Shown here piece by piece: positions 8,702-40,289 of a stretch of 64,000 nt of DNA. The stretch comes from Malacoraja senta (taxonomy: Eukaryota): positions 22,570,001 to 22,634,000 of the forward strand of contig CM075989.1 in NCBI GenBank assembly GCA_038087875.1. The letters are read 5' to 3'. The position numbers and the translations under genes were made by a program. Under the pieces are notes generated by a model. It was not told the DNA's origin and did no database searches. It saw only the letters and a list, made by a program, of their open reading frames with translations. Within the stretch, counting starts at the first letter, position 1, and every line of letters starts with the position of its first letter.

Positions 8702-8897
8702 CTTTCTTCTTCTTTTTGTGTCCATCTTGTTACAAATGTTGACCCCGCTGTCATCGTCCGTCCTGAAAACGACGCAAGCTTCCGGCGACAATCAGTGGGA
8801 GCCATCACTTGTCGCAATAGATGATGGTGGTAGCAGAATTAGCTCGGGATACTTCCAGTTTCCAGCCCCGCGACGTGGATGCTTCTGCTATGGGGCC
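8702..8897 (-). mobile_element. 196-bp non-autonomous retroposon with 5' HDV-like ribozyme and (AAG)n tail
   Basis: Perfect 11-bp TSD ATTCTGCTACT (8691-8701, 8898-8908) inside a CR1 3'UTR; tail AAAAAGAAGAAGAAAG. Confidence 0.88.
8831..8897 (-). ncRNA. HDV/CPEB3-like self-cleaving ribozyme motif
   Basis: GGCCCC-A-TAGCAGAA-GCA-TCCACGT-CGC-GGGGCT-GG-[P4]-CTAA-TTCTGCTA: P1 6 bp with G1.U, P2 8 bp, P3 with one mismatch, P1.1 CC/GG, putative catalytic C at 8842. Confidence 0.88.
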
Positions 8898-8961
8898 ATT
8901 CTGCTACTAGGACTTATGATCTAAAGCATCTTGCAAATTTCTTTGCAAGCTTTTGAAAATA

Positions 8962-9092
8962 ATGTGTAGGAAGAAACTGCAGATGCTGGTTTAAACCGAA
9001 GATAGACACAAAAAGCTGGAGTAACTCAGCGGGACAGGCAGCATCTCTGGAGAGAAGGAATGGGTGACGTTTCAGGGTGGGGACCCTTCTTG
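8962..9092 (-). mobile_element. Penelope terminal unit
   Basis: Reverse complement of the hammerhead-bearing unit. Confidence 0.75.
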
Positions 9093-9169
9093 GAAACAAT
9101 GCCCTTAGTTGCTGATGAATTGCATCTGAAATGCTACTGCTGGGTGTAGAAAGAGAACAGAGTCTCGGC

Positions 9170-9485
9170 AGGTAGACAAAAATGCTGGAGAAACTCAGCG
9201 GGTGAGGCAGCATCTATAGAGGTGACGTTTCAGGTCGAATCCCTTCTTCAAACTGATGTGGGGGTGGAGGGGGCGGGAAGAAGAAAGGAAGAGGCGGAGA
9301 TAGTGGGCTGTGGGAGAGCTGGGAAGGGGAGGGGAAGGAGGGAGAAAGCAAGGACTACCTGAAATTGGAGAAGTCAATGTTCATACCGCTGGGGTGTAAA
9401 CTACCCAAGCAAAATTTGAGGTGCTGCTCCTCCAATTTGCGGTGGGACGCACTCTGGCCATGGAGGAGGCTCAGGACAGAAAGAT
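9170..9485 (-). mobile_element. Penelope-like element 3' fragment
   Basis: End of GIY-YIG ORF followed by purine/pyrimidine-skewed UTR and terminal unit. Confidence 0.8.
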
Positions 9486-9821
9486 TCTCGGCAGGATCAG
9501 GACTAATCTACCCCCTAGCCATTCCCTGCAGTCAGAACACAGGGTGGTCATAGACCAGAGGTCAAGATCAGCTCTGAAAGAGTCCAGATGTGGACAAGAT
9601 GAGAGCGTGGAAGAGGAAATACTGCCCGGTAATTAGGAGAGATTCAGAACTGAGAAAGACTTGGCAATATTGAGTATTAGTTCAACTGAAAATTCCCCAC
9701 AATCAGCTATAAATAGCAAATGCTGATTGTACAAGGAAAATCTTCTGTCCTTCAAATCATTGTTGGTCATGCAATGATTACTGTAGTGCAGGGGCTGGGG
9801 CCAGGTGTGTTCACATTTGTG

Positions 9822-10030
9822 CAGGGAGGAACTGCAGATGCTGGTTTAAACCAAAGACGGACCTAAAATGCTGGAGTAACTCAGCGGGTCAGGCTGCATC
9901 TCTGGAGAAAAGGAAAAGTCTGAATAATCTTGCGTCTGAAGAAAGGTCTCGACCCGAAACGTCACCCATTCCTTTTCTCCAGAGTTGCTGCCTGACCCGC
10001 TGAGTTACTCCAGCTTTTTGTGTCAGTCTT
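9822..10030. mobile_element. Inverted pair of Penelope terminal units
   Basis: Hammerhead motif CTGAAGAAAGGTCTCGACCCGAAACGTC starting at 9936. Confidence 0.75.
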
Positions 10031-10069
10031 TGGAATGTATATTTGGCAGAGCACTTGAAACATATGCTT

Positions 10070-11190
10070 TTATAGTCATTGAGTGGTACTACATCGAAAC
10101 AGGCCCTTTGGCCCAACTCATCCATGCTGGCTGCATTTGGCCCATATCCCTCTGAAACTCTCCCATCCATGTACTTGTCCAAATGTGTTTAATAGTACCC
10201 GTCTCAACTGCCTCCTTTCTCCAGACATGCTGCCTGACCCTCTGAGTTACTCCAGGTGTTTGTGTCTGCCTCCTCTGATAGCTTGTTCCATATACCTGCC
10301 ACTCTCTGAGTGAAAAGTTACCCCTCACAGTTGCTCCTATTAAATCTTTCCCCTCTCACCTTAAACCTATGTCCTCTGGTTCTTGATTTCCTTACCCCGA
10401 GTAAAAACCGTTGCATGCACCCTTTCTATTCCCTTCCTGATTTGATACACCCGTCCGTATAAGATCACCCTCAGCCTCCTGCACTCCAAAGAATAATGCC
10501 CTAGCAGCCCAACCTTTTCCTACAGCTTAGGCCCTCGAGTCCTGGCAACATCTTTGTAAATCTATTCTATACTCTTTCCAGCTTAGTCACAACCTTCCGT
10601 TAGCAGAATAAGCAAGACTGAACACGAGCCAAATGCAGCCTTAAGGGCCTGTCCCACTTTCACGACCTAATTCACGACCTCTGCCGAGTTTGCCCTTGAC
10701 TCATACTCCCAGTATTGACGCCACAAGGTCGTAGGAGGTCATAGGTAGGTCGTAGGTAGGTCGTAGGTAGGTCGTGGTGCTAGTCGTAGGTACTCGTGGC
10801 ATCAAGTAGGTCGGGGAGTTTTTTCAACATGATGAAAAATGTCCACAAGTAAAAAAGGTTGTGAATTAGGTCGTGAAAATGGGACAGGCCCTTTACCAAC
10901 GTCTTATACAACTGAAACATTACATCCCAACTTCTATGCTCAATGCCCTGACAGATGAAGGCCAAAAGCCTTCTTTACCGCCCTATCTATACTTGCTGCC
11001 ACTTTCAGAGAACTATTTCTCAGGTTCGTACTCTGCTCTACAGTGTTCCTCAGTCCATTGAAGGTCCTGCCCTGGTTTGACTTGCCAAACTGCAACTCCT
11101 CACACTGATCAGCATTAAACTACATTAGTCATTCCTCAGCCCAGTTGCCCACCTGATCAAGGCCCTGCCGTAATGTTTGATAACCTCTTT
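10070..11190 (-). mobile_element. Degraded CR1 fragment with nested insertions
   Basis: CR1 3'UTR and ORF2 remnants (e.g. QGIEHRSWDVMFQLYKTLV). Confidence 0.7.
10644..10892. mobile_element. PIF/Harbinger-type MITE (family A)
   Basis: TIR AGGGCCTGTCCCACTTTCACGACCTAATTCAC and its inverse; TTA TSD at 10641-10643 and 10893-10895; internal GGTCGTA repeats. Confidence 0.88.
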
Positions 11191-11477
11191 AATGTGCCTA
11201 AAGACCATCAGGCTGAGGTGCAGTGTCCTGCAGGCTCACAACTACCCTGGCCAGGTAAATACGTCACACATTATATCCATTTCAGCTCTTAGAATATCAC
11301 AATGATTTCATTGACTAACTGTATTTAGACTGACTTGGAGATTAACTGGACTTTTAGTTTAGTTTAGTTTACTTTAGTTGAATCTGATGAAGGGTCTCGA
11401 TCTAAAACAGCACCTATTCCTTTTCTCCAGAGATGCTGTTTGACCCGCTGAATTACTCCACCATTTTGTGTCTATCT

Positions 11478-11970
11478 TTAGTTTAGTTTAGTTTGGTTTA
11501 GTGATACAACATGAAAATAGGCCCTTTGACCCATCGCGTCACGCTGACCATCAATCACACATACATTAGTTCTATGTTGTCCCGCTTTCGCATCCTACTC
11601 GCACGCGGCAATTTACAGAAGTCAATTAATCTACAAACCTGCACGTCTTTGGAATGTGGGAGATCAACAAAGCGCCCAGAGAAAACCCATGTGGTCACAG
11701 GGAGAACTTGCAAACTCCTTACACAAAAGCACCTGTAGTCAGGATTGAACCCGAGTCTCTGGCAAGGTGACCTTGCACTGAACGTTATTCCCTTATCATG
11801 TATCTGTACACTGTGGATGGCTCAATTGTAATCATGTATACTCTTTCCACTGGCTGATTAGCACGCAGCAAAAGCTTTTCACTGTACCTTGGTACACGTG
11901 GCAATAAACTAAAGTAAACTGGCCTGAACTGTGAGGCAGCAGGTCCACAACTGTGCCACTGTGCTGCCCA
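11478..11970 (-). mobile_element. V-SINE interrupted by a Rex/Babar 3'UTR insertion (about 11768-11920, plus strand)
   Basis: SINE head resumes near 11929; insert has GCAAAAGCTTTTCACTGTACC...CAATAAACTAAA. Confidence 0.75.
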
Positions 11971-12912
11971 ATGGATTGTTATCCTGCGATTTAATATCAA
12001 ATCAAGATTACATTTCCTGTATTCTGAAACGGGGGGCGAGAGATTTATTTTAAAAATGTAAAAAGTCCTGAGAAAGCAGGCAAATAGATAGGTCCCCCAG
12101 TCCATGAACTAACGTCAGAAACTTTAGTCCAAACGAGAGTGAGTCCTGCTGACTGCTTGAAATACGAGGAGCAGATCGAGGCCTGGCTAAATGCATCTCT
12201 ATTTATGTTGGAGAACATGGCAAACTCAGACAATACCTAAAAAGGAAGCAAACAGCTTTTGTGTGCATAGTGTTGGTAATTTGACAGTTCTTTCATGGGA
12301 CAACATAAAATCAAAAGCAAAGATTCTCTTTCGCTTAAGGGAAAATGAAAAAAAAAAAATCAAAGAAAACCTTGGACTAATTAACGGAGGCATGACTCCT
12401 TGATAACACAAAGGAAGGCAGAAAATCCAAAGATTGAAACTGTTAGAAATATTCCCAAGGCGGAAACTCAAAACCCACAGAATGCCGAGTTCTTCTAAAG
12501 GGTTAGTTGATACCAGAGGGAGTTGGAAAGGAAGACCGATTCACCTAATAGAAATTGAGAACATGGAGAAAATCTTGCAGGAATATACATAGAGAAAATA
12601 TGAAAAATATGTAAGAAAGGTCACGGGACAACCGAAGCTTGGAGTTTTATCATTTGAACAGAGATTAAGCTGAGATGTGGTGTTTAATTAAAAAAATAAG
12701 GATAAATGCTGGGAATGCTCAAGAAGTCAGGCAGAATATGTGGAGAGAGAACGAAACAATGTCATTGGAGTAAAAGGAAACACTGCCAAAGGTGGGAATC
12801 CAGAACAAAAGAAGAAAGTGATAAAATAAAAACAGAGATATAATTACACCAGCATCCCCACTTGCTTAGAAGTTTAAACCAATTTGGCACTTGGTCGAGG
12901 ACTCTAATATAT

Positions 12913-13290
12913 CGGGTAGAGTTGATGCCTCACAGCGCCAAAGACCTAGGTTTGATCCTGATTACGGGTGCTGTCTGCACAGGGTTTGGACGAAGATAGA
13001 CACAAAATGTTGGAGTAACTCTAGCGGGACAGGCAGCATCATTGGAGAGAGGGAATGTGTGACGATTCGGGTTGGGATCCTTTGTACGTTCTCCCTGTGA
13101 CCGCATGGGTTTTCTCCAATTGCTCTGGTTTCCTCCCACATTCCAAAGACGTGCATGTTTGTAGGTTAATTAGCTTCAGTAAATTGCCCCCTAGCGTACG
13201 GGATAGAACTAGTGTATGGGGTAATCGCTGGCTCGGTGGGCCGAAGGGCCTGTTTCCGCGCTGTATCTCTACAGTAAACTAAACTAAGGA
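12913..13290 (+). mobile_element. V-SINE with a nested Penelope terminal unit (about 12990-13080, minus strand)
   Basis: Family similarity of both parts. Confidence 0.75.
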
Positions 13291-13428
13291 AGCAGTCATA
13301 GGTGGGTAGACAATAATGCTGGAGAAACTCAGCGGGTGAGGCAGCATCTATGGAGCGAAGGATCAGGTGACGTTTCTGGTCGACACACCAAAGGTGACGT
13401 TTCAGATCGAGACACGGAAGCATCTATG

Positions 13429-13628
13429 NNNNNNNNNNNNNNNNNNNNNNNNNNNNNNNNNNNNNNNNNNNNNNNNNNNNNNNNNNNNNNNNNNNNNNNN
13501 NNNNNNNNNNNNNNNNNNNNNNNNNNNNNNNNNNNNNNNNNNNNNNNNNNNNNNNNNNNNNNNNNNNNNNNNNNNNNNNNNNNNNNNNNNNNNNNNNNNN
13601 NNNNNNNNNNNNNNNNNNNNNNNNNNNN
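13429..13628. other. Assembly gap (200 N)
   Basis: N run. Confidence 1.
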
Positions 13629-13834
13629 TCACCCATTCCTTCTCTCCAGAGATGCTGCCTGTCCCGCTGAGTTACTCCAGCATTTTGTGTCTATCTTAGT
13701 GTGAAATACTCTTTTGATATATAGATCAGTAAGTTATCACTGTACATAAGTACAATCCCCTGATTAGAGTGTACATAACTAGCCCACTGGGTGTATATGC
13801 AAGAGTCACCATGTTTTGGTGCCATTGGTGCATG

Positions 13835-14095
13835 CGGCACGGTGGCGCAGCGGTAGAGGTGCTGTCTGTACGGAGTTTGCACGTTCTCCCCGTGACCTGC
13901 GGGTGCTCTGGTTTCCACCCACGCTCCAAAGACGTACAGGGTTATATTGTAATTGGCTTGGTATCGACGTAAATTGTCCCTAGTGTGTGTGTGTGTAGGA
14001 AAGTGTAAGTGTGCGGGGATCGCTGGTCGGCGCGGACCCGGTGGGACGAAGGGCCTGTTTTCCACGCTGTATCTCTAAACTAAATTAAGCTAAAG
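13835..14095 (+). mobile_element. V-SINE, internally deleted
   Basis: Head joined to the core with the B-box region missing; normal tail. Confidence 0.8.
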
Positions 14096-14311
14096 CCGAC
14101 ATTCCCAGCTGCAGCTGTCCACAAAGTCCTATTGCAGCCGCCGCCTCCAGTCAGATCGTCCCGCCAACCGACGTCCCTCCCCTCGCTCTGAACACTCAGC
14201 GCCCAAAAGATATCAGGCTGCAGTTAAACTTTAACATTGGTTTATCTTTGACCATTGTTGTTGTCTACTAAAGCGGAGAATGCACATCAAGAAAAAAACC
14301 CTGGATTAGTA

Positions 14312-14640
14312 ACCAGTGCACTGCTGAAGGAGTTGTGACTGTCAGATATGTCATCTTTCAGTTGAGATGTTAAGCTGAGGCCCCACCGTTCTCTCTCATT
14401 GATGTGACTTTACTTCAAATAACAGCAGGCGATTTTTCCTGGGTGTCCTAGAAAATTATATTTCCTTAGCCAACAATCACTTGGAAACAGATAATCTGAT
14501 CATTACCACCAGAGATCTCGCTGTGCACAATTTGCTGCAGTGTTTCGTCCTTTACATCACTGGTTACATTTCACAAGGAAAGGCTGTGAAGTGCGCTGCG
14601 TTCTCGAGGAAGTGAAAGGGTCTGAATAATGCAGGCTTCC
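14312..14640 (+). mobile_element. Old Deu-domain SINE (SacSINE1/AmnSINE1-like)
   Basis: Ordered blocks TCTTTCAGTTGAGATGTTAAGCTGAGGCCCC, GGTGTCCT, AAACAGATAATCTGATCATTA, GCTGTGCACAATTTGCTGC, GTGAAAGG resemble the Deu-SINE consensus as recalled. Confidence 0.7.
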
Positions 14641-14842
14641 CTCCCGACTGCACAAACAGGCATTGTTGATTGCTCTCAGTCTGAAGAAGGGTCTCGACCC
14701 GAAACATCCCCCATTCCTTCTCTCCAGAGATGCTGCCTGTCCCGCTGAGTTACGCCAGCGTTTTGTGTCTGTCGTGGTTGATTGTCGATATCTCTTTCTC
14801 CTCGAGAGGAGTGGAGGTGTGGGACAAATGATAATATTTTGT

Positions 14843-15072
14843 GTTTAGTTTGGTTTAGTTTAGAGATACAGCGCGAGAAACAGGCCCTTCGGCCCACCGA
14901 GTCCGTGCCGATCGGTGATCCGTGGACACTTACACTATCCCACATACACTAAGGACAACTTACAACCTTTACCAAAGCCAATTAACTTACAAACCTGTAC
15001 GTCCTTTGAGTGTGGGAGGAAACAGGAGCTCCCAGAGAAAACACATGCGGTCACAGGGAGAATGTACAAACA
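14843..15072 (-). mobile_element. V-SINE, 5'-truncated
   Basis: Family similarity. Confidence 0.8.
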
Positions 15073-15150
15073 CTCAGTGTGAAGAAGGGTCCCGACCCGA
15101 AACGTCACCCATTCCTTCTCTCCAGAAATGTTGCCTGACCCGCTGAGTTA

Positions 15151-15240
15151 AGCCCCTGTCCCACTTACGTGCCCTTGGCACGAAGGTCGCGCGCGACTTC
15201 ATTCGCCCGCACAGCCGTCTGGAGCGCGTGGCGTCATTTG
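15151..15240. mobile_element. Partial Harbinger-type MITE (one TIR only)
   Basis: TTA followed by AGCCCCTGTCCCACTT; CpG-rich. Confidence 0.55.
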
Positions 15241-15470
15241 AAGATGGACACAAAATGCTGGAGTAATTCAGCGGGACCGGCAGCATCTCTGGAGAGAAGC
15301 AATGGATGATGTCTCGTGTCGAGACCCTTCTTCAGTCTGAAAGAATGGTCTTGACCCGAAACGTCACCCATTGCTTCTCTCCAGAGATGCTGCCTGACCC
15401 GCTGAGTTACTCCAGCATTTTGTGTCTATGTTTGGTTTAAGCCAGCATCTGCAGTTCCTTCATACACATA
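15241..15470. mobile_element. Inverted pair of Penelope terminal units
   Basis: Axis at CCCTTCTTCAG-T-CTGAAAGAATGG near 15336. Confidence 0.8.
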
Positions 15471-16820
15471 TAGCTGATCTGTTGGGAAAGAGTGCAAAAT
15501 AAAGCTTTTCACTGTATCTTGGTGCATGTGACAATAATAAACCTAAAACTGATCTCTTGGCTCAGATTAATTGAGCCTTGCATTGGCTAAACACTCCCTG
15601 TGTTAAACTTGTCTGAGGCTTTAATGGAAGCTGGCAGGCAAGTGCAACAAATTACTCTGGTCAGATATTGATAGGTCAGCACATTGGATGGACAAATGCT
15701 GAATTATCTACAAAGTATTGAAGAGAAACCCTATAATGTTATTGAACACTGAAGTACAATAAATGGAGGCACAACAGACTTCAGATCCTGGAATTTTGAG
15801 CGAAAAACACAAAGTTTTGAAACAACTTTTAACTTTTCGTACAAAGGGTGGTGGGTGTATGGAACGAGCTGCCAGAGGAGGTAGCTGAGGCAAGGACTAT
15901 CGCAACGTTTAAGAAACATATTAGACAGGTACATGGATAGGAGAGGTTTAGAAGGATATGGACCAAATGCAGGCAGGTGGGACTAGTGTAGCTAGGACAT
16001 GTTGTCCGCTGTGGGCAAGTTGGGCTGAGCTGCCTGCTTCCATGCCGTTTGACTCTATGACTCAGTGAGTCAGGCAGCAACTGGGGAGGGAGTGGATAGG
16101 TGACGTTTCAGGTCAGATTCCAAAGAAGGGGTTTCGTCCTGAAAATTGCATGTCCATTCCCTCCCCAAATGCTGCCTATTCCACAAAGTTCCTCAAGCAC
16201 TTTGTGTTCTGTTTAAGTAAAATCAATGATTAACCTGTTGAGTGCCCCCCCCCCCCCCCCCTGAGCATACTCGAGTGAATAGTGAAAAATAAATTGGCGG
16301 TGAACACGTTAAAGTGCCCTAAATTTTAACATCTTGTGTTGAAACTAACCCTTTGGAAGAATCCACGATTTTTCAGAGTGAAAAGTCACATTTAAACATG
16401 AATGATAAGAATATAAAAACAAAGTAAAAAGAACTAACCATTTGGCCCTTCAAACCAGCTTTGCTCTTCAATAAGGTGAAGATCTCTTCCATAAGGTGAA
16501 GAGTCTCAGTCTGAAGAAGGGTTTCGACCTATCATGTCACCTATTCCTTTTCTCCAGAGATGCTGCCTGACCCACTGAGTTACTCCAGCCGTTTGCATCT
16601 GTCCTTCATCTCAACTCTATCTCCAAGCAAATGTTTGAAAATTTCCTCCATATTCAAAATCCACCAATCTTTAGCTTGGATACATTAACTCACCAAAACC
16701 CCACGGAATTCAAGAATTTCAAAATTCATCTCCCTCTGAAAGAAGGTATTTCTCTCTGACCCAATAGAATCATGTAACTCCTCTTTCAAACACAGCAACA
16801 CTTAGCTCCAGACTATCTCC

Positions 16821-17258
16821 CATAGAAACATGGAAACATAGAAAAATAGTTGCAGGAGAAAGCCATTCGGCCCTTCGAGCCAGCACCGCCATTCAATATG
16901 ATCATGGCTGATCATCTAAAATCAGCACCCAGTTCCTGCTTTCTCCCCATATCCCTTAATTCCTTTAGCCCTAAGAGCTAAATCTAAATTTCTCTTGAAA
17001 ACATCGAGTGAATTGGCCTCCACTGCCTTCTGTGGCAGAGAATCCTACAGATTCACGACTCTCTGGGTGAAGAAATGTTTCCACATCTAGGTCCTGAATG
17101 GCCTACCCCTTATTCTTAAACTGTGTGACCCCTGGTTCTGGACTCCCCCAACATCGGGAACAGTTTTCCTGCATCTAGCCTGTCCAATCCTTTAAGAATG
17201 TTATATGTTTCTATAAGATGCCCTCTCATCCTTCTAAATTCCAGTGAATACAAGCCCA
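16821..17258 (-). mobile_element. CR1 3' fragment
   Basis: ORF2 tail, 3'UTR and (TTTCTATG)n-type tail. Confidence 0.85.
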
Positions 17259-17334
17259 AGAGTAGCAAATATTCTTCATGAGCACTGACCCTATCAAGTC
17301 TTCAGAATATGTTTCAGTGAGATATATTATTCTG

Positions 17335-17672
17335 GGGTGGCACGGTGGCGTAGCGGTAGAGTTGCTAATAATACTGGGCCAGTGATTTACAGCGCCAGAG
17401 ACCCGGGTTCGATCCTGACTACGGGCGCTGTCTGTACAGAGATTGTACGTTCTGACCCTGACCTGTGTGGGTTTTCTCCGGGTGCCCTGGTTTCCTCCCA
17501 CACTCCAAAGACGTACAGGTTTGCAGGTTAATTGGCTTCCGTAAAGATTGTACATTTTCCCCTGTGTGCGTAGGACAGCGTTGGTGTGCTGGTGATCGCT
17601 GGTTGGTGTGGACTCGGTGGGCCGAAGGGCCTGATTCCCCGCTGTATATCTAAACGAAACGAAACTAAACCA
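17335..17672 (+). mobile_element. V-SINE (HE1-like), near full length
   Basis: A-box GGTGGCGTAGCGG, B-box GGTTCGATCC, V-domain-type core, CR1-like tail. Confidence 0.88.
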
Positions 17673-18799
17673 AATATCTACTTTCCTTCTGCTGTACTCC
17701 AGGGAATGCAGAGCTACTGAACCCAATCTCCCCTCATAGGCATCTTAGAAATCATTCCAATGAACCTTCACTGCACTCCTTCTAATATAAGTATATCTTT
17801 TCTTTTGCACAGGAACCAGGTGGTTCCTGGTGGCTGCAGACCCTATCTAATTACACTAAGCAATGAACTGCTGCTAACCTACCATATGCTTTCTTAATTA
17901 TTTGGTGCAACTGTGTGTTAACTGCACATGATTTGTGTTTAAGGTAAACCAGGTCCCGGTGTGTTACATTTGGTGAGCTGGCAACTACACCTTCTTCCCC
18001 CAGGGTTTAATTTAAGTAATTTGCCTAGAAATTGATTTCACCCCATTTTTGTCTGCTTAATTGGCCCAAACAGCAAACTTTGTTTGGTCGTCACCAAAGT
18101 ACATTCGCAAATTGCCATTTTAAGAATAGCTCATTTGGTGTTCTCATTTAAATGTCTTCAAGGCAAATTTAGAATCATAAGGCATGGAAACAGACCCTTC
18201 GGCTCAAGTCTTCCATGCCGACCAAGACTCTCATCTAAACTAATCCCATTTGAGTGCAATTGGCCCATAGCCCGGTAAACCTTTTGTTTCCATGTACCTG
18301 TCCAAATGTCTATTAAATGTTGTCATAGCGTCTTCTGAATCCAACCACAAACATCAGTATGGACAGGACAGGTCTAGAGGGATACGAGCCAAATGCAGGC
18401 AGGTGGGACCAGTGTAGATGGGACATGTTGGCCGATGTGGGCAAGTTGAGCTGAAGGACCAGTTTTTACGCTGTCAGACTCTATGACTCCATCAACTGTC
18501 CATCCTCACCCCAGATGCTGCCTGACTTGCTGAGCTGTTTCAGAACTTTGTGTTTTTACGCTCAAGATTCCAGGATCTACAGTCCCTTGTGTCTCCATTT
18601 ATTTCATTTAGGTGTTTAAGAGCATCTTAAGTTTTTTCTTCAATATTCTTTAGTTTACCTCCTCTGGCAGCTCATTCCATATGATTTGTAGGTACATCAC
18701 AGAGTCATAGAATGATATAGCGTGGAAGCAGTCCCTTCGGCCCAACTAGCCCACACTGGCCAACATGTCCCAGCTACACTAGTCCCACCTGCCCGCGTT

Positions 18800-22596: not shown

Positions 22597-22628
<32 letters not shown>

Positions 22629-22758: not shown

Positions 22759-22828
<70 letters not shown>

Positions 22829-30249: not shown

Positions 30250-30415
30250 AACAAGTACTTCTGGCATGTTGTCATTATGGGGAATAACAACAAAGGCAAT
30301 TTACAATTGGCAAAGTCCCACAAATAGAAACACAATATGGCAATGATCAGAATTGTTTTACTACAGTGAGAAAAGTCAAGGGACAAAGATTTGCCAGGAT
30401 ACCACAGCTCTTTGA
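30250..30415 (-). mobile_element. Highly degraded Deu-domain SINE fragment
   Basis: AAGTACTT...CCCACAAATAG...AATGATCAGA...GGGACAAAGATTTGCCAGGATACC resembles the reverse complement of 14430-14580. Confidence 0.45.
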
Positions 30416-30722
30416 TATTAGGATCAGGACCAGCTGAATTTGGTCACGATTACTGTATCACTGAGATCCCTGGTACATCCTCCCCTTCCCATGTTCAGCC
30501 ATGTTTCCTATGACAGAAGACTCTCAATGCCAAGTTTTTGGTCCTCACCAGGGTTACCATCTCCTCCTTAAGCCCCGGTGGCCTTTTACCTGTCAAAGAC
30601 TTCCTGCTGCACAGAGGTGGTGGCAAAGCTGGAGAAATGCTATCAGCATTAAAAAATATCCAATGACCTGGCCTCCACTGCCGTCTGTGGCAATTAATTC
30701 TACAGTTTCACCACCTCTGACT

Positions 30723-30776
30723 GGGGTGGGAGATTGCAACATTCACGTGGTCCGCCCTGTTTCGACTAATGCAATC
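30723..30776 (+). ncRNA. Minimal (P4-less) HDV-like ribozyme motif, 54 nt
   Basis: GGGGTGG-GA-GATTGCA-ACA-TTCACGT-GGT-CCGCCCT-G-TTTCGA-CTAA-TGCAATC: P1 7 bp with G1.U, P2 7 bp, P3 with one mismatch, putative catalytic C at 30766. Confidence 0.85.
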
Positions 30777-30865
30777 AACCTGGCGTGCACAATCAAATAA
30801 GATCAAATAGAACAAGTTGTCCGACAACCTTAGGCTGTGCACGCCACACGCAAGAAGAAGAAGAA
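30723..30865 (+). mobile_element. 143-bp non-autonomous retroposon (Vingi/Ingi-like) with 5' minimal HDV-like ribozyme
   Basis: TSD CACCTCTGACT / CACTTCTGACT (30712-30722, 30866-30876) inside a CR1; 3' end GGCTGTGCACGCCACACGC(AAG)4AA. Confidence 0.85.
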
Positions 30866-31065
30866 CACTTCTGACTAAAGAAATTCCTCATTACTTCCAT
30901 TCTAAAAGTACATCCTTTTATTTTGAGGCTGTTCCCTCCTGTATTAGACTCTCCTATTCCTGAAAACATTATTTCCACTTCCACTGCATCTACGAGACCT
31001 TTCATGATGCAACCATTGCCATCCCATCAAACTATGGACCACAAATCAACATTCTGCCTGCTATA

Positions 31066-31270
31066 TACACACACAGACACATACACATGCACATGCACAC
31101 GCACGCACGAACTCACACACACACGCACGAACTCACACACGCACGCACAAACTCACACACGCACGCACGAACTCACACACGCACGCACGAACTCACACAC
31201 ACACGCACGAACTCACACACGCACGCACAAACTCACACACACACGCACGAACTCACACACACACACACAC
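31066..31270. repeat. 20-bp minisatellite (RCACGCACRAACTCACACAC)n built on (CA)n
   Basis: About 8 tandem units visible. Confidence 0.9.
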
Positions 31271-31514
31271 AGATATCTACAAACACAGACACATTGCACT
31301 CTCTGATAAGGTTTTAGAATTGCTAACCAACATTAAAATGAATTTGTAATTACATCTTAGCTGTACAAAATAAAATTTTCTACTGTTTTTATGAAGATGC
31401 AAATGAAATCAATCAAAGGAAGATCGTGCAAACTCCACGCGGACAGCGCCTGAGGTCAGGATCATACCACATCTCTGGCATTGTGAGGCAGCAGCTCCAC
31501 CAGCTATGCACCAT

Positions 31515-32000
31515 GTTCACAGGTTCACAAGTTATAGGAGTAGAATTAGGCCATTCGGCCCATTAAATCTACTCCGCCATTCAATCTTGGCTGATCTCTG
31601 CCTCCTAATCCCATAACCTTTGACACCCGTTCTAGTCAAGAATTTGTCTATCTCTGTCTTAAATGTATCCACTGACAGCCTCCGCAGCCCTCTGTGGCAA
31701 TGAGTTCCATAGGTTAACTACCCTCTGACTAAAGAAGTTCCTCCTCACCTCCTTTCTAAAAGAGCGCACTTTAATTCTGAGGCTATGGCCACTGGTCCTA
31801 GACTCTCCCACCATCCACTCTCTCCACATCCACTCTATCTAAGCTCCTCAATCTTCTAAACTCCATGAGTAGTGGCCCAGTGCTGTCAAGCGCTCATCAT
31901 ATGCTAACCCACTCATTCCTGGAATCATTCTTGTAAACCTCGCCTGGACCCTCTCCGGACCCAACACATCCTTCCTCAGATATGGGGTCTATGCTGTCCA
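31515..32000 (-). mobile_element. CR1 3' fragment
   Basis: CR1 3'UTR and ORF2 tail. Confidence 0.75.
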
Positions 32001-32029
32001 TGATTATGATCTACTGATTTTTCATTCCA

Positions 32030-32341
32030 TTTAGTCTCCCCTTTTAGATACACCATGGAAACAGGCCCTTCGGCCCACTGAGTCCGCAACGACCAGCGAT
32101 CCCCGCACTCTAGCACTATCTTAAGCACGATATGAACAATATTACATTTACACCAAGCCAATTAACCTACAAACCTGTACGTCTTTGGAGTGTGGGAGGA
32201 AACCGGAGATCCTGGAGAAAACCCACGCAGGTCACGGGGAGAAAGTACAAACTCCGTACAGGCAGCACCCGTAGTCGGGATCGAACCCGGGTCTCTGGCG
32301 CTGTGAGGCAGCAACTCTACCGTTGCGCCACCGTGCCGCCA
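32030..32341 (-). mobile_element. V-SINE, full length
   Basis: Family similarity. Confidence 0.88.
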
Positions 32342-32957
32342 TCTTCTATGAGCTGAAGATTGTTAGGAGGGATCAGAAAGCATTCTTGTCCCCATCATAA
32401 GAGTCTGACTCCGGCAATTTGAGGTTTGTAAGAAGCTGTTGGGTCGCCCAGCTGTGTTTGTGCCCAAAATACACTTTTGTTAACATCACTTCAAAGGGCT
32501 GAGAGACACCTCTGCTTGCTGCGCGCTATCTAACAAGTTTTACTTACCAAGTGCACAATCATGACAGATTCACTTAATATTAATGAGCTGGCTGTCAGGA
32601 GACCAAGTTAACCGTATGGGACCGCCATCCTCATATGAAGGGAAGTCTACCGCCGTTTTACAACGAGAGTTGCAGTGTCTCACAGATGGAAGTGTCGCAC
32701 CTGGACGTCCTGTCAAGTTGACAGGTTTCTCTATTGGGAAGTAATGCCTTTTGATCTACTCTTGCTCCAACTTGGCTTTTTAAGCAATTGGATTGGAAAC
32801 CGGGACCTTATCTCACAAGGTGTTTTTTTGTTGTTTTTTTTGCTTAGTCGATACCTAATTGCCAGGCAGCTAATGTGCTGTGGTGCACGAAGCCACTTCA
32901 TGAATAATCTGATTTTACTCTCTCTGGTCTGTGTTTGAAACGACAGCATTTTCAAGA

Positions 32958-33175
32958 TGTGTCGGAAGGAACTGCAGATGCTGGTTTAAGATCGACACAA
33001 AAAGCTGGAGTCACTCAGCGGGTCAGGCAGCATCTCTGGAGGAAAGGAATAGATAACGTTTCGGTTCGAGTCCCTTCATCAGGATCTGAAGAAGGGTCTC
33101 GACCTGAAACATCACCTATTCCTTTTCGCCAGAGATGCTGCCTGACCCGCGGAGTGACTCCAGCTTTGTGTCTAT
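32958..33175. mobile_element. Inverted pair of Penelope terminal units
   Basis: Hammerhead core on both strands around 33055-33115; both arms share the GAGTCACTC variant. Confidence 0.8.
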
Positions 33176-33813
33176 TGGCTTTTTCAAGAGTTCATTTTTG
33201 TCCAGAAACAGGTTTTGTACATAATCCACTGTAATTAACCTTCTCTATCATTTGCCTTAAACCTTTGTTGATTTTGCTATTGCAAGTTAATTTAATTCAT
33301 CACATATAGCAGAGACATGTGATGCCTGAACGTGTTACTTTCCCTCAAAGAATAGGAAAATAAGTAGAAATCACGACATCTGTTATTGTTTAGAAGCCAG
33401 AACTATAACGTTATTATTCAACTCTGGCAGCCCTAAACTTAGTTTGGTTGAATCATTAAGTAACAGAGTCATACATCATGGAAACAAGCCCTTTGACCAA
33501 CTTTCCCATGACAACCAAGATGTCCCATCTACATCAGTTACACCTGCCTTATTCCTTCAAACTTTCCTATCCATGTAACTGCCCAAATATCTTTTAAATG
33601 TAGATATACTACCTGCTTCTGCTACCTCCTCTGGCAGCTCATGCTTCTCCAGCATCTATTTCCCTCGTGATCTTATACACTGCTCTAAGTTCCATCCTCA
33701 CCCTCCTGCATCCCAAGGAATAAAGCCCAGGCCTGCCCAACCTCTCCCGCTAGCCCAGGTCCTCAAGTGCTGGACACATCTTCATAAATCTTCTCTGCAC
33801 TCTCACCAGCGTA

Positions 33814-35037
33814 ACATAGAAACATAGAAACATAGAAAATAGGTGCAGGAGTAGGCCATTCGGCCCTTCGAGCCTGCACCGCCATTTGATATGATCATGT
33901 CTGATCATCCAACTCAGTATCCCATCCCTGCCTTCTCTCCATACCCCCTGATCCCTTTAGCCACAAGGGCCACATCTAACTCCCTCTTAAATATAGCCAA
34001 TGAACTGGCCTCAACTACCTTCTGTGGCAGAGAATTCCAGAGATTCACCACTCTCTGTGTAAAAAATGATTTCCTCATCTCGGTCCTAAAAGTCTTCCCT
34101 CTTATCCTTAAACTGTGACCCCTAGTTCTGGACTTCCCCAACATCGGAAATAATCTTCCTGCATCTAGCCTGTCCAACCCCTTAAGAATTTTGTAAGTTT
34201 CTATAAGATCCCCCCTCAGTCTTCTGAATTCCAACGTGTACAAGCCGAGTCTATCCAGTCTTTCCTCATATGAAAGTCCTGCCATCCCAGGAATCAGTCT
34301 GGTGAACCTTCTCTGTACTCCTTCTATGGCAAGAATGTCTTTCCTCAGATTAGGAGACCAAAACTGTATGCAATATTCCAGGTGTGGTCTCACCAAGACC
34401 CTGTACAACTGCAGTAGAACCTCCCTGCTCTTATACTCAAATCCTTTTGCTATGAATGCTAACATACCATTTGGTTTCTTCACTGCCTGCTGCACCTGCA
34501 TTTCTACTTTCAATGACTGGTGTACCATGACACCCAGGTCTCGTTGCATCTCCCCTTTTCCTAATCGGCCACCATTCAGATAATAGTCTACTTTCCTGTT
34601 TTTGCCACCAAAGTGGATAACCTCACATTTATCCACATTATACTGCATCTGCCATGCCTTTGCCCACTCACCCAACCTATCCAAGTCACCTTGCAGCCTC
34701 CTAGCATCCTCCTCACAGCTAACACTGCCCCCCAGCTTCGTGTCATCCGCAAACTTGGAGATGTTGCATTCAATTCCCTCATCCAGATCATTAATATATA
34801 TTGTAAATAGCTGCGGTCCCAGCACTGAGCATTACGGTACCCCACTAGTCACACTGCCTGCCATTCTGAAAAGGACCCGTTTACTCCTACACTTTGCTTC
34901 CTGTCTGCCAGCCAGTTCTCTATCCACATCAATACTGAACCCCCAATACCATGTGCTTTAAGTTTGTATACTAATCTCTTATGTGGGACCTTGTCGAAAG
35001 CCTTCTGAAAGTCCAGATACAACACATCCACTGGTTC
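33814..35037 (-). mobile_element. 5'-truncated CR1 LINE, reverse transcriptase region of ORF2, frameshifted near 34850
   Basis: [37 protein letters not shown] motifs; 303-aa open stretch 33914-34825; (TTTCTATG)n tail. Confidence 0.95.
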
Positions 35038-35714
35038 TATAGATATATAGTTCTATAGAAAGTCCAGATATAACAACATCCTTCCTCTAGCTGGGTGACC
35101 AAAACTGAACACAACACTGTAAACAAAAGGGAATAAAATGTTGATATCTTCCAGGGTACTGACCCTTTGAGTTACTCCAGCACTTTGTGTCTATCTCCTT
35201 TCATGTTGAGTTCATCTTGTAATTTTGTAAAACAAAGTAATACAGATTTATAGACATATTTCTTTGAATGATTCCAATAAGGCCATAAGATATAGGAGCA
35301 GAATTAGGCCATTCAGCCCATCGAGTCTACCAGTCGATCATGGCTGATCTCTCATCCCCATTCTCCTGCCTTCTCCCCGTGACTTTTGATGCCCTTCCAA
35401 AACAAGAACTTTAAATAGACAATAGGTACAGGAGTAGGCCATTCGGCCCTTCAACCATTCAATGTGATCATGGCTTTAAAAATACCCATTGTCATGGCCT
35501 CCACAACCGCCTGTGGCAATGAATTCCACAGATTCACCACTTGCTGGCTAAAGAAATTCCTCCTCATCTTCATTCTGAATTAAGGCAAAATATGCGTGCA
35601 GACATAAGGACTTTCATATGCTTATTTAAAAAAAAAAATGTGCAGGGATCACTCAGCAGGTCAGGCAACATCTATATATCATTTGGGAGATTTAGACCTT
35701 AGACATTAGATTCC

Positions 35715-36003
35715 CGAGATACAGCACGGAAAAAGGCCCTTCCGCCCACCCAGTCCATGCCAACCAGCAATCCCCGGACACTACTCTCCTTACTACTAGG
35801 GACAAATTACAATTCTACAGAAGCCAATTAACCTACAACCATGTATGTCCTTGAAATGTGGGACAAAACTGGAGCATCTGGAGAACCCCCACACAGTTAC
35901 AGGGAGAAGGTACAAACTCTGTCCAGACAGCACCCGTAGTCAGGATCGAACCCGGGTCTCTGGCGCTGCAAGGCAGCAACTCTACCGCTGTGCCACCGTG
36001 CTG
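35715..36003 (-). mobile_element. V-SINE
   Basis: Family similarity. Confidence 0.8.
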
Positions 36004-37964
36004 CAGTGTTTTAATTCCTGTTAAGAACATTTTATCCAGAAAAGAATTTTTAAATGGCTTGTTACTTCCCACATACAAAGTCTTTTTCTTAAACTTAATT
36101 GTGCACTTTTGAATACGTTTTTTTTTTCAGGAATACAGTTTTATAAAATGCTGCCCGATCGTACAATCTGAAGGGCAAAGTTAGTGATTGAGCCAAATTA
36201 TCAAAATGTTATGTCATGATAGCACAGCTGTAATAGCAGAAATTAATATATTAAAAGTTAAGAGGAGCAATCTCGCCAATTTTTGTTGAACAACAATAGA
36301 TGGAGAGAATGTACGTGCAGTATGGAGTGAACAAGTAAGTATGAAGTAGGGTTTTTAATTTTTTATTATTTATTTATTTATTTTTGAAATTATTTTTTAT
36401 TGGAGGTAGATACATATCATATTAAAATCGATACCAGTCTTACATTTTTAAATTACTAATATCGTCCATTATTATTACAATGTCTCCAATACTTTTTTTC
36501 TTTTTTTTAAACTAAATAGAACTAAAAAGATATAGATGAAATAAAGAAAGAAAGAGAAAAAAGAGATGAAACAAAACCAAAAAAATAAATTAAAAAAAAA
36601 TAATAAAAAAAAAGATAATAAAGAAGATGGAATAATTTACTACGATAAAAAACTTCATTCGAGATATATTCGTACATTTCAGAGTATAACATTTCATCTA
36701 TTCCTTGGCACGGGTGATGAAGTAGTTTTTAAGAAGGAACTGCAGATACTGGAAAATCGAAGGTAGACAAATATGCTGGAGAAACTCAGCAGGTGAGGCA
36801 GCATCTATGGAGCGAAGGAATAGGTGACGTTTACCCAATCACCCAAGGGGTAGTAAGATATGCAGCCAAGATTGGGATAAAGTAACAAAAACAAAACAAA
36901 CACTTTATTTTCTTCGCTCCAGACATAATGAGTGTCCCCATGTCCCTTGATTCTGTTAGCCCCAAGAGCAATATCTAACCCTCTCCTGAATACATCTTGC
37001 ATACATCTCTTGAAATGATCATTTGTTAGCTGAGGTAGACAAAAACACTGGAGAAACTCAGCATGTGAGGCAGCATCTATGGAGCGATGCCTCACCCGCT
37101 GAGTTTCTCCAGCATTTTTGTCTACCTAAGTTTGAAGTAGATTGTTTTCATATCAGGTGACCCTATGGCATTAAAGATCCAGATAAATATACATGTTCCA
37201 GTTAGTCATTACCTCTAGTATGTATATGCTTTTATTTTATAATTGCTGTCTCTGATTCTTCTGACTGCACAGTAGTAGTCCTCGTAAAAAAAAAAAAAAA
37301 AGCAAAACCGGGGAAGGAGGTTGAAGACTTAATCAGCTCTGTTAATTGGAGTTTTAAAATGGTGTTCAGTCAATTAAGCCTTTCTTTGTTCTTACCCCAT
37401 AAAGTAAATAACTAATTAATAGCCATCACTCAGTTGTATATCACCGCACACTTAGAATGCATAAAATGGTGCACACAAAAAAGCATCCTAGTTGCTGGTC
37501 TGCACTCTGTGGAATTGATGTTCAAAATCACGAAACAACCTTACTGTGGTTGTGTCTTTCCATTCCAGCAGGACAGAGGTGTGAAGCTGGTTATTTTGTT
37601 ATGCATATATGTTAAGCATTTATCAACAAATACTGGCGATAGCAATTATCAGAGTGTTCCACGTTAATATACTTTGCACGTGAAACTAATATGCCTATTA
37701 TACATGTATAAAAACATGAGTCACAACACAAACCGCTCCACCCTGCCCACCCTCCCACTGCCTGGGAACCTACAATGAAGGTGAAGACTTTAGCTCTGGA
37801 TATCTAACAGACCAGTAAAAATCCCCCCTTCCTTCCCTCGGCATCACTCCACCGCATCGCTCTCACAACCAGACATCTTCAAGATTTGGAATCGCTGTAG
37901 GTTCCTTAAAATGAGGAGATGACCTTTTTGGAGATGTGATCATCTGGCCCATAACTGCTGCCAA

Positions 37965-38193
37965 GGGTGGCACAGGGGCACAGCTGGTCGAGCTGCCGCC
38001 TAACAGCTCCAGAGATCCAGGTTCGATCCTGACCGCGGGTGCTGTCTGTGTGGAGTTTGCAGGTCCTCCGTGTGACCCCAATTTGGTTCCTCCGGTTTAA
38101 GCCCTCATCTCAAAGACGGGAAGGTTTGTAGGTTAATTTGCCATTTGTAAATTGCCTCTACTCTGTAGAGAGTGGATAGGAAATTTGGATATC
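37965..38193 (+). mobile_element. Diverged V-SINE
   Basis: A/B boxes and core. Confidence 0.75.
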
Positions 38194-39331
38194 AATAGAC
38201 AATAGACAATAAGTGCAGGAGTAGGCCATTCGGCCCATTCAATGTGATCATGGCCAATCATCCCCAATCAGTACCCCGTTCCTGCCTTCTCCCCATATCT
38301 CCTGACTCCGCTATTTTTAAGAGCTCTATCTAGCTCTCTCTTGAAAGCATCCAGAGAACCTGCCTCCACCGCCCTCTGAGGCAGAGAATTCCACAGACTC
38401 ACCACTCTCTGTGAGAAAAAGTGTTTCCTCGTCTCCGTTCTAAATGGCTTACTCCTTATTCTTAAACTGTGGCCCCTGGTTCTGGACTCCCCCAACATTG
38501 GGAACATGTTTCCTGCCTCTAGAGTGTCCAAGCCCTTAACAATCTTATATGATTCAATGAGATACCCTCTCATCCTTCTAAACTCCAGAGTGTACAAGCC
38601 CAGCTGCTCCATTCTCTCAGCATATGACAGTCCCGCCAACCCGGGAATTAACCTTGTAAACCTACGCTGCACTCCCTCATTAGCAAGAATGTCCTTCCTC
38701 AAATTAGGGGACCAAAACTGTACACAATACTCCAGGTGTGGTCTCACTGGGGCTCTGTTCAACTGCAGAAGGACCTCTTTGCTCCTAAATTCGATTCCTC
38801 TTGTTATAAATGCCAACATGCCATTCGCTTTCTTCACTGTCTGCTGTACCTGCATACTTACTTTCATAGACTGATGTACAAGGACCCCCAGATCCCCTTT
38901 TCCCAACTTGACGCCATTTAGATAGTAATCTGCCTTCCTGTTTTTGCTACCAAAGTGGAAAACCTCACATTTATCCGCATTAAACTTCATCTGCCATGCA
39001 TCTGCCCACTCCCCCAACCTGTTCAAGTCACCCTGCATTCTCATAGCATCCTCCTCACAGTTCACACTGCCACCCAGCTTTGTGTCATCTGTAAATTAAC
39101 TAATGTTACTTTGAATCCCTTCATCCAAATCATTGATGTATATTGTAAATAACTGCGGTCCCAGCACCGAGCCTTGCGGTACCCCACTAGTCACTGCCTG
39201 CCATTCTGAAAGGGACCCGTTAATCCCTACTCTTTGTTTCCTTTCTGCCAACCACTTCTCTATCCATGTCAGCACTCTACCCACAATACCATGTGCCCTA
39301 ATTTTGCCCACTAATCTCCTATGTGGGACCT
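38194..39331 (-). mobile_element. 5'-truncated CR1 LINE with RT remnants and a premature stop
   Basis: [24 protein letters not shown] and 265-aa C-terminal stretch. Confidence 0.93.
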
Positions 39332-39737
39332 TCGAACTAATGTGAACGGGTGATTATTTGAACAATGAATAATGGATATTTATTGTCACATATGCAATTA
39401 AACATTCCAAAGTGAAATTCATAACGCATATAATGCCAGAGCCACCATGTTCGGTGCCATTTCATCAAGTTCAAAGTCCAGGCCTGGCCAAGGATAGCCG
39501 TGATGTCCTAGGCCGCTGGTCCACCGCTGTAGGCCGCGTCCGGCCCAAACACTCGGCCTCTTTGATCGGTTATTACAAAATCTGCTTTCCTCAAGTGCGT
39601 CCGTCCGAATCCTTTAGACTTGTATCATTAGTTTATGCTTCTTCTTATCGAGTCTACACACACACACACAATATTAGAAGTTGTTCAGCCAGAGCTGAAC
39701 ACCCTTGTCAGCATCTGCATACAATGGTGTCTGTCTT

Positions 39738-40195
39738 TATGCGGTCGGTCCGCATTAACCAACTTGACCTCCCGGTGGCTCAGCACTTCAACTCCCCCTC
39801 CCATTCCGTATCTGACCTCTCTGTCCTGGGTCTCCTCCATGGCCACAGCGAGCAACACCGTAAATTGGAGGAAATGCACCTCATATTCCGCTTGGGCAGT
39901 CTACATCCTGGGGGCTTGAACATTGAATTCTCCCAATTCTGCTAGCCCTTGCTGTCCCCTCCCCTTCATCAGCCATCCGGTTGTCTCCTCCACTCCCCCA
40001 GCCCTCGGGCTCCTCCTCTGCCTTTTTCCTTTTTTCCTTTCTTCTCCCCACCCCCTATCAGTCTGAAGAAGGGTTTCGGCCCGAAACGTTGCCTATTTCC
40101 TTCGCTCCATAGATGCTGCTGCACCCGCTGAGTTTCTCCAGCATTTTTGAGTACCTTCGATTTTCCAGCATCTGCAGTTCCTTCTTTAACACCTA
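39738..40195 (+). mobile_element. Penelope-like element 3' fragment with terminal hammerhead unit
   Basis: VAQHFNSPSHSVSDLSVLGL...GLNIEFSQFC*; TSD GTGTCTGTCTT (39727-39737, 40196-40206); hammerhead motif at 40063. Confidence 0.9.
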
Positions 40196-40237
40196 GTGTC
40201 TGTCTTGTCACTTCTTGTGCTTCTTGTGAGTGATGGT

Positions 40238-40289
40238 GGAAAGATTGGTGAAAACCGGGCCGCGACGTGAACGCTCTTTCCTTGACCAC
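40238..40289 (-). ncRNA. Minimal (P4-less) HDV/CPEB3-like ribozyme motif with decayed P1
   Basis: GTGGTC-AA-GGAAAGA-GCG-TTCACGT-CGC-GGCCCG-G-TTTTCA-CCAA-TCTTTCC: P2 7 bp and P3 3 bp perfect, P1 4 of 6 pairs. Confidence 0.78.

Follow-up and report, generated by a model that had tools for sequence, protein, structure and literature searches.

The window analysed here is a 64,000-nt stretch of the genome of the skate Malacoraja senta (positions 22570001-22634000 of contig CM075989.1; plain coordinates below refer to the window). It carries three short retroposons, F1, F2, and F3, each composed of a head predicted to fold like the hepatitis delta virus (HDV) ribozyme, a short body, and an (AAG)n tail. 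F1 is 196 bp long and runs from 8897 to 8702 on the minus strand, flanked by two copies of its target-site duplication (TSD), AGTAGCAGAAT, upstream at 8898-8908 and downstream at 8691-8701 (both minus strand); its 66-nt HDV-like, or CPEB3-like, ribozyme (8832-8897, minus strand) was recognized by a match to the Rfam family RF00622 and by a parse of the fold. F2 comprises 143 bp on the plus strand (30723-30865) between the duplications CACCTCTGACT (30712-30722) and CACTTCTGACT (30866-30876), which are 11 bp long and differ by one mismatch. Its head, at 30723-30775 on the plus strand, is a minimal HDV-like ribozyme of 53 nt that lacks the P4 helix. F3 spans 40289 to 39638 on the minus strand and amounts to ∼183 bp once a nested insertion of 469 bp is subtracted. 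The 5' part (40196-40289) includes a P4-less ribozyme of 52 nt (40289-40238) and a portion of the body, while the 3' part (39638-39726) ends with GACTCGAT(AAG)3. The insertion itself (39727-40195, minus strand), delimited by comparison with uninterrupted F3 copies, is another abundant repeat with its own 11-bp TSD, AAGACAGACAC; the outer TSD of F3 is GCATGAACT / GCATAAACT.

Thus, all three elements, proposed in the original prediction to be 196, 143, and about 180 bp long with TSDs of their own, were found where they had been placed. In each of them the first base after the TSD is the first base of P1 in the HDV-like fold, again as proposed, and the 3' end is (AAG)n. The sequence AAGAAGAAG has four matches at three sites of the window, all of them inside the tails of F1, F2, and F3, with 0.9 matches expected by chance. 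As had also been claimed, none of the elements contains an open reading frame (ORF), and no match to the A- or B-box of RNA polymerase III (Pol III) promoters has fewer than three mismatches. The boundaries of F2 are visible in public data as well: contigs from four runs (four organisms) leave the window sequence at 30722/30723 and at 30860-30865. In the same runs the segment directly upstream of F2 (30642-30722) is highly repeated, with boundaries near 30652-30658; hence, F2 adjoins or sits inside another repeat.

The three elements represent dispersed families. In a search of the 1.94-Gb assembly, the first-look candidates numbered 2070 for F1, 952 for F2, and 1019 for F3, and the 40 matches scored in each search had identities of 95-100%, 96-100%, and 92-100%, respectively. 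Both the multicopy status and the high genome-wide abundance anticipated from the window are borne out by these counts. We fetched 30 loci per family and read their 5' ends, which fall on the same base, denoted +1, at 30/30 F1, 30/30 F2, and 30/30 F3 loci. This base is G at 27 F1 loci, A at two, and C at one; it is A at a single F2 locus, and F3 heads start with GGGGTC or a one-base variant thereof. Apart from these substitutions (three F1 loci and one F2 locus), the predicted pile-up of 5' ends at G1 was observed. After exclusion of duplicated loci and of copies with no recognizable 3' end, a TSD of at least 8 bp with at most one mismatch abuts +1 in 19 of 24 F1, 24 of 28 F2, and 19 of 22 F3 copies, that is, in 62 of 74 non-redundant copies. 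The TSDs are 9-16 bp long, mostly 11-14 bp. At the position preceding +1, where the TSD ends, T is found in 19/24, 16/28, and 19/22 copies of F1, F2, and F3, respectively (54/74 together); this could be a target-site or a 5'-junction preference. Among the four bases just upstream of the TSD, the fraction of T is 42-56%. The starts of the TSDs were also compared with the insertion signature of RTE elements (PMC6007223), and this comparison was abandoned as too fuzzy, since the tail and the TSD share bases.

No similarity between the bodies of F1, F2, and F3 was detected by blastn with word size 7. The 3' terminal boxes preceding the tails are GACACGA in F1, GACTCGA in F3, and CACACGC in F2, the latter being one base off the ACACGA type and failing the pattern; the ends read …GGACACGA-AAAG… in F1 and …GGACTCGAT-AAG… in F3. 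Therefore, the initial description of the families as unrelated holds for the bodies, but not for the termini, as the heads form one ribozyme lineage and the 3' boxes are alike. A divergent copy from an F1 subfamily (L075:~1250-1320) ends with …GAAACATGGAAGATGGACATGA(AAG)3, indicating that F1 has older sub-lineages.

To describe the fold, we parsed the commonest variant of each family, in which P1, P2, and P3 are all fully paired. The F1 head (66 nt) has P1 GGCCCC/GGGGCT, P2 AGCAGAA/TTCTGCT, P3 GCG/CGC, L3 TCCACGT, 21 nt in J1/4+P4, and CTAA in J4/2. In the F2 head (53 nt) these are P1 GGGGTGG/CCGCCCT, P2 ATTGCA/TGCAAT, P3 ACC/GGT, L3 TTCACGT, 7 nt in J1/4+P4, and C-N-AA in J4/2, and in the F3 head (52 nt), P1 GGGGTC/GGCCCT, P2 GGAAAGA/TCTTTCC, P3 GCG/CGC, L3 TTCACGT, 7 nt in J1/4+P4, and CCAA in J4/2. 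The window copies carry some decay. The F1 copy has the P1, P2, L3, and J4/2 of its family and P3 GCA/CGC; the F2 copy has the family P1, P2, and L3, with CTAA in J4/2 and P3 ACA/GGT; in the F3 copy, P1 has decayed to GTGGTC/GGCCCG. In line with the original prediction, the family sequences repair the broken pairs: GCA becomes GCG in P3 of F1, ACA becomes ACC in P3 of F2, and GTGGTC/GGCCCG becomes GGGGTC/GGCCCT in P1 of F3. The stretch between the 3' strand of P1 and J4/2 is just 7 nt long in F2 and F3, and so these heads have no P4 helix; the P4 region is present in F1 and in two long interspersed nuclear elements (LINEs) described below, F4 and an RTE-like LINE. The P4 helix is dispensable in known minimal HDV-like variants.

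The pairing was assessed in a MAFFT alignment of 21 distinct F1-F3 heads, the LINE heads being handled in a separate manual parse. Standard pairs occupy 93.9% of the cells, compared to 72.8% with shuffled partners (the observed value was reached in 0 of 500 shuffles) and 35-56% with slid partners. Eight of the 16 pairs differ on both sides across the heads; as these paired changes lie between three lineages, they count as few events and not as 21. F1-F3 have C-G as the P1.1 pair between nucleotide 3 of L3 and the first nucleotide of J1/4, whereas the RTE-like LINE has G-C, a compensatory change. The second P1.1 pair (nucleotide 2 of L3 with nucleotide 2 of J1/4) is C-G in F1 and U-U elsewhere. 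The combination of TCCACGT and GG found in F1 recurs in L133, a LINE related to F4 and otherwise unrelated to F1. In J4/2, the pattern C-N-A-A is present in 23/23 F1, 33/33 F2, and 29/29 F3 heads (85/85 together) and in six of eight LINE heads. When the window was scanned with a strict descriptor of the fold, anchored on L3, two of the ten L3-motif sites passed, those of F1 and F2, compared to a mean of 0.08 per window in 50 mononucleotide shuffles. The decayed window copy of F3 fails the descriptor, while the F3 family sequence pairs fully. On the fetched loci, only members of the F1-F3 families and three heads of the RTE-like LINE pass. Hence, the natural covariation of P1, P2, and P3 around a kept L3 and J4/2, noted earlier from three copies, is retained at the family level, along with the compensation in P1.1, although it derives from three or four lineages. 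Judged by sequence, the F1-F3 heads are members of the HDV-like fold class, with the predicted nested double pseudoknot, P1.1, and the J4/2 cytosine.

The closest Rfam family is RF00622, the Mammalian CPEB3 ribozyme, with the gathering cut-off of 35 bits. A scan of the whole window produced no match at gathering thresholds: the window copy of F1 scores 34.4 bits (E 1.3e-7), slightly below the cut-off. A consensus-like F1 copy (L005) exceeds it with 41.8 bits, a consensus-like F3 copy (L066) stays below with 27.9 bits, and F2 does not match. Thus, the comparison with the Rfam CPEB3 and HDV models, suggested as a check in the original prediction, placed F1, alone of the three families, over the CPEB3 cut-off. 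The head of the RTE-like LINE has no Rfam match, and the F4 head reaches 63.8 bits. Genome-wide, 39 of 59 scored places are over the RF00622 cut-off, the best one at 64.2 bits, while none of 14 control genomes has a match.

The best RF00622 matches come from the fourth family, F4 (queried copy L112+L113, G000:C1:217550465-217551100). Of its long genomic matches, 10 of 14 start at G1, and the copies are 94-99% alike to the queried one, most of them 96-99%. An ORF with an apurinic endonuclease (APE) domain begins 101 nt from G1. F4 copies align to residues 4-994 of a 995-aa homologue with ∼60% identity, and two of them have stop-free open frames, one of 1008 aa that covers residues 5-994 of this homologue and one of 1014 aa that covers residues 14-994. 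As the domain scan of F4 itself covers residues up to 166, the reverse transcriptase (RT) domain was read from homologues, which have PF03372/PF14529 (APE), PF00078 (RVT_1), and a C-terminal Cys/His motif; neither RNase H nor DUF6451 is on record for these homologues. According to a published description, Vingi is related to Ingi, is compact, has a single ORF, and lacks RNase H (PMC13708176). Since one compact ORF with an APE domain, together with RT and no recorded RNase H in the homologues, agrees with this description, F4 is probably a young, low-copy, Vingi-like single-ORF LINE headed by a CPEB3-like ribozyme. Related LINE families with ∼50% protein identity also have open frames in the genome. 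At G000:C8:937732-937814, just upstream of a full F4 copy, three partial copies of the F4 ribozyme, drawn from its first ∼30 nt, are arranged in tandem.

A tblastn search with the query P0242 found no F4-type 3' ends in ∼350 kb of collected sequence, and the 3' structure was read from relatives. F4 relatives are encoded by 80 metagenome contigs, of which we examined 17 reaching the ORF end. In twelve of the 17, the ORF is followed at a short distance by a trinucleotide tail (six in the AAG phase, five ATG, and one CAA), and in eight of these twelve an ACACGA-type box directly precedes the tail. Just upstream of the ORF, 4 of 12 F4 relatives have a match to an HDV-family Rfam model, in all cases below the gathering score: L133 (40.8 bits) and L122 (30.9 bits) match RF02682, and L117 (31.0 bits) and L128 (26.5 bits) match RF00622. 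Similar heads are seen in published Vingi sequences: according to the supplement of PMC5786205, sequence of the GGGGCCATAGCAGAAGCGTTCACGTCGCG…CTGCGAATTCTGC type is located at the 5' ends of Repbase Vingi-2_Gav (2-74), Vingi-4_Crp (1-64), and Vingi-1_BF (8-69), and in Vingi-2_SPur at 395-451, not at the 5' end. By eye, this head, as given in the supplement, comes close to both the F1 head and the Rfam CPEB3 consensus.

A second LINE was found by scanning the fetched loci for further (AAG)n tails. Its ORF ends with …RWRTFVNGLCSLEEQR, and the stop codon runs directly into (AAG)n. The encoded protein has the RVT_1 and DUF6451 domains, and we call this LINE RTE-like because its homologues are APE- and RT-containing proteins of ∼1000 aa on ∼3.3-kb contigs. 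By sequence features it resembles the RTE clade, with a single ORF of ∼1000 aa, APE and RT, no C-terminal zinc knuckle, a very short 3' untranslated region, and a microsatellite tail. Its 5' ends (n=8) read CCTCTCC…GGACTGC…ACC TTGACGT GGA GGAGAGG…(97 nt)…CGAA GCAGTCC, and are predicted to form an HDV-like fold with a large P4; the head has C instead of G at +1, TTGACGT in L3, and 97 nt in J1/4+P4. All three copies with both junctions readable start at the first C of P1 and have TSDs of 9, 13, and 12 bp. Candidates number 433 by 3' DNA, 2812 by C-terminal protein, and 2011 by 5' DNA searches. The 3' copies are 94-96% alike, and an open frame longer than 550 aa surrounds none of the 150 scored C-terminal matches. 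Copies truncated at the 5' end also exist, as two upstream walks ran into them. The 5' ends were read at L098-L105 and L108/L110, the 3' ends at L087:2400-2712, L091, and L093, and a long copy lies at G000:C1:254999100-255002200. The original prediction called for full-length LINEs sharing both termini with the short elements. The RTE-like LINE has an HDV-like head of its own and the (AAG)n tail, but it lacks the ACACGA-type box.

Taken together, the exact +1 ends, the TSDs in 62 of 74 copies, and the lack of ORFs and of recognizable A/B boxes support the proposal that F1-F3 are promoter-less elements resembling short interspersed nuclear elements (SINEs), whose 5' end would be set by an HDV-like ribozyme and which would be copied by a LINE. 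The life cycle could be as follows. A copy located in a transcribed region would be read through by a host polymerase. In the transcript, the head would fold into the double pseudoknot and cut just 5' of +1, as the fold suggests and the start points of the copies support; since the predicted cut falls immediately 5' of +1, the RNA would start exactly at G1. A LINE protein, most likely that of F4, would then recognize the 3' box and the (AAG)n tail, nick a T-rich target, and reverse-transcribe the whole short RNA, producing a TSD of 9-16 bp. Because the ribozyme cuts upstream of itself, each daughter copy would inherit an intact head and could free itself from any new host transcript.

Our preferred reading is that F1-F3 are non-autonomous ribozyme-processed retroposons mobilized by a compact LINE with APE and RT, most likely the Vingi-like F4; we assign it a probability of about 0.6. 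A driver of the Ingi/Vingi type was guessed already in the original prediction, and of the candidates considered it is the better supported one, given the F4 head, the box and trinucleotide tail of F4 relatives, and the 5' ends of Repbase Vingi elements; judged by these sequence features, F1-F3 are probably driven by a Vingi-type LINE. Several observations weigh against this. The F4 tail is deduced from relatives with 36-61% protein identity, and the ACACGA-type box is a post hoc definition and thus descriptive only. There are ∼20 F4 copies versus thousands of SINE copies, and, beyond the ribozyme core, the SINE bodies have no significant similarity to 603 nt of the F4 5' region. The covariation stems from three or four independent lineages rather than 21 independent sequences, and the heads in the J4/2 parse were chosen by sequence pattern, with badly decayed copies excluded before counting. 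The model also does not account for the 3' end of the read-through transcript. The same mechanism could operate with the RTE-like LINE of this genome, and not F4, as the driver. That LINE is the only one here whose tail has been read directly, with (AAG)n right on the stop codon; it is far more abundant than F4, in 3/3 readable cases a full-length copy opens with the first P1 base of its own HDV-like fold and is flanked by TSDs, its 3' copies are about as similar to each other as the SINE copies are, and HDV-like ribozymes have been published for RTE elements (PMC6765202, PMC5786205). However, the ACACGA-type box of F1 and F3 is missing from its 3' end, where …AAAGGGCTT precedes the tail, and no other head diverges as much as its own, with C at +1, TTGACGT, the 97-nt J1/4+P4, and no Rfam match. 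Moreover, the open frames around the 150 scored C-terminal matches never exceed 550 aa, and the bodies of the SINEs show no similarity to it, the best match being a 17-nt stretch with E 0.004. We thus consider the RTE-like LINE less likely than F4 to be the driver, but a serious competitor.

Other explanations concern the head itself. It might be an internal promoter, or a protective or protein-binding 5' structure, similar to Pr77 of L1Tc or the R2 5' pseudoknot, in which case the uniform ends would mark the transcription start. In L1Tc/NARTc the same 77 nt are indeed both promoter and ribozyme (PMC3383444), and the T before +1 in 19/24, 16/28, and 19/22 copies can be read as a preference at the target or the junction that has nothing to do with catalysis. 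Yet the features kept in F1-F3 are those of the catalytic fold, namely the P1.1 covariation, C-N-A-A in J4/2, and the L3 motif; the heads of F1, F4, and F4 relatives fit models of proven ribozymes; and a promoter role would leave the compensatory changes in P1 and P2 unexplained. This makes it improbable that the head is mainly something other than a cleaving ribozyme. Still far less plausible is that F1-F3 are ordinary Pol III SINEs with an unrecognized head, or that the fold is a chance resemblance. Like any SINE, they are short, ORF-less, abundant, and flanked by TSDs, but the best A-box and B-box matches have three or four mismatches to the consensus, and Rfam scans of the whole window and of the element regions revealed no tRNA-, 5S-, or 7SL-like head. 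Chance is further disfavoured by the descriptor, with 0.08 passes per shuffled window versus two observed, and by the presence of the same head before the ORF of LINEs in this genome and elsewhere.

We also considered whether the SINE bodies are LINE derivatives. This was rejected, as blastn and Smith-Waterman comparisons with the RTE-like LINE and the F4 5' region returned the ribozyme core only. Two short matches were recorded in F1. Positions 164-180 match the start of the APE-coding region of the RTE-like LINE with 16 of 17 nucleotides identical (E 0.004), which we treated as chance, and an 11-nt match, GACAAATGATG, at positions ∼85-95 to the start-codon context of F4 was spotted by eye. 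Each of the two could be fortuitous or a remnant of a LINE-derived body.

RTE, R2, LOA/Baggins, and L1Tc LINEs reportedly carry HDV-like ribozymes at their 5' ends (Ruminski et al. 2011; Eickbush and Eickbush 2010; Sanchez-Luque et al. 2011). F1-F3 resemble these LINEs in the proposed co-transcriptional 5' processing of promoter-less elements, and the RTE-like LINE described above fits among them directly. Ribozyme processing of the 5' ends of elements without long terminal repeats is documented in PMC6765202, PMC8256844, PMC3185411, PMC3414825, and PMC3383444. ORF-less derivatives that keep the ribozyme are known as well: NARTc shares the ribozyme of L1Tc (PMC3383444), and R2 SIDEs retain that of R2 (PMC3414825). 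Kojima (2018) described "bipartite non-autonomous LINEs" derived from RTE, Ingi, Vingi, and R2, and proposed the 5' ribozyme as the reason why such elements retain the true 5' end; one passage there lists six clades as ribozyme-bearing, with Vingi not among them (PMC5786205). As both 5' processing by a ribozyme and ORF-less derivatives are already established, F1-F3 are new examples of a known element type.

The likeness to bipartite elements (derivatives of Vingi-1_EE, RIME/NARTc, RTESINE2/WALLSI3, and R2 SIDEs) includes the lack of ORFs, the TSDs, the proposed dependence on a LINE protein, and probably the retention of the extreme 5' and 3' ends of a LINE. By contrast, what F1-F3 share with LINEs is limited to the ribozyme of ∼52-66 nt, a terminal box of ∼8 nt, and the tail, with no LINE-derived body found; in addition, the three bodies are mutually unrelated and two of the heads lack P4. 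Another relevant element is SINE2-1_AMi of the alligator, annotated as "tRNA - Vingi5' - unknown3'" in the supplement of PMC5786205. According to this supplement, it has the same Vingi-type head sequence and a GGACACGAAAAAGGAAAGGA-like, GGACACGAAAAAGG-type 3' end, but its ribozyme is internal, downstream of a tRNA-derived Pol III head, whereas F1-F3 begin with the ribozyme. F1-F3 may provide a clean natural case of a promoter-less retroposon of ∼145-195 bp reaching thousands of copies, for which a 5'-trimming ribozyme and a few terminal bases recognized by a LINE would suffice. The several independent variants of the double pseudoknot, two of them very small and P4-less, could be useful for ribozyme engineering and for better search descriptors.

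The similarity to the CPEB3 ribozyme extends beyond the fold: P3, L3, and the J4/2 context are near-identical, as is the P2 sequence in F1 and in Vingi 5' ends, and on RF00622 F1 reaches 41.8 bits and F4 63.8-64.2 bits, the cut-off being 35. On the other hand, the CPEB3 ribozyme is a single conserved copy in a CPEB3 intron, whereas the skate heads form the 5' termini of mobile elements dispersed with TSDs in tens to thousands of copies, differ in P1, and, in F2 and F3, lack P4. In 2021 the CPEB3 ribozyme was stated as not found outside mammals (PMC8233481), and traces of Vingi are recorded in the human genome as X12_LINE (PMC5753468). Heads of this type occur in the genome studied here, in metagenome-borne relatives of F4, and in the Repbase Vingi sequences from crocodilians, amphioxus, and sea urchin. 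On these grounds we tentatively suggest, at somewhat less than even odds, that Vingi LINEs generally start with a CPEB3-type ribozyme, that this head has been shed onto ORF-less mini-elements, and that the CPEB3 ribozyme itself is an exapted 5' head of a Vingi-clade retroposon. If so, mini-elements such as these, including the P4-less heads of 52-53 nt, would be the missing outgroups for the CPEB3 ribozyme, the latter would be linked with the extreme 5' end of LINEs from a widespread clade, and its origin would become directly testable, which matters for studies that approach CPEB3 expression and memory through this ribozyme. Our literature search retrieved no statement of a ribozyme in Vingi or of a Vingi origin of the CPEB3 ribozyme, although Ruminski 2011, Webb 2009, and Kojima 2011 may already have it. 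Within the same literature, we found no report of Vingi 5' ends as CPEB3-type ribozymes, of numerous sequences over the Rfam CPEB3 cut-off outside mammals, or of P4-less 52-53-nt heads on vertebrate retroposons.

The window contains other repeats. The one nested in F3 (39727-40195) includes …GCTGGAGTAACTCAGCGGG…CAGCATCT… and is also present at 8960-9100, at 9170-9260, and at many other loci. At one locus (L096) the repeat with GCTGGAGTAACTCAGCGGG…CAGCATCT belongs to a CR1-like LINE, and the best named relatives of this CR1-like fragment are from the cartilaginous fishes Chiloscyllium (68% identity) and Callorhinchus (69%). Pentanucleotide TTTAG/CTAAA arrays are scattered in the window, e.g., at 8364, 11353, 11477, 21098, and 47515. 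Finally, there are short interstitial telomere-like arrays, (GTTAGG)5 at 7850-7881 and (GGTTAG)3.7 at 8058-8079.

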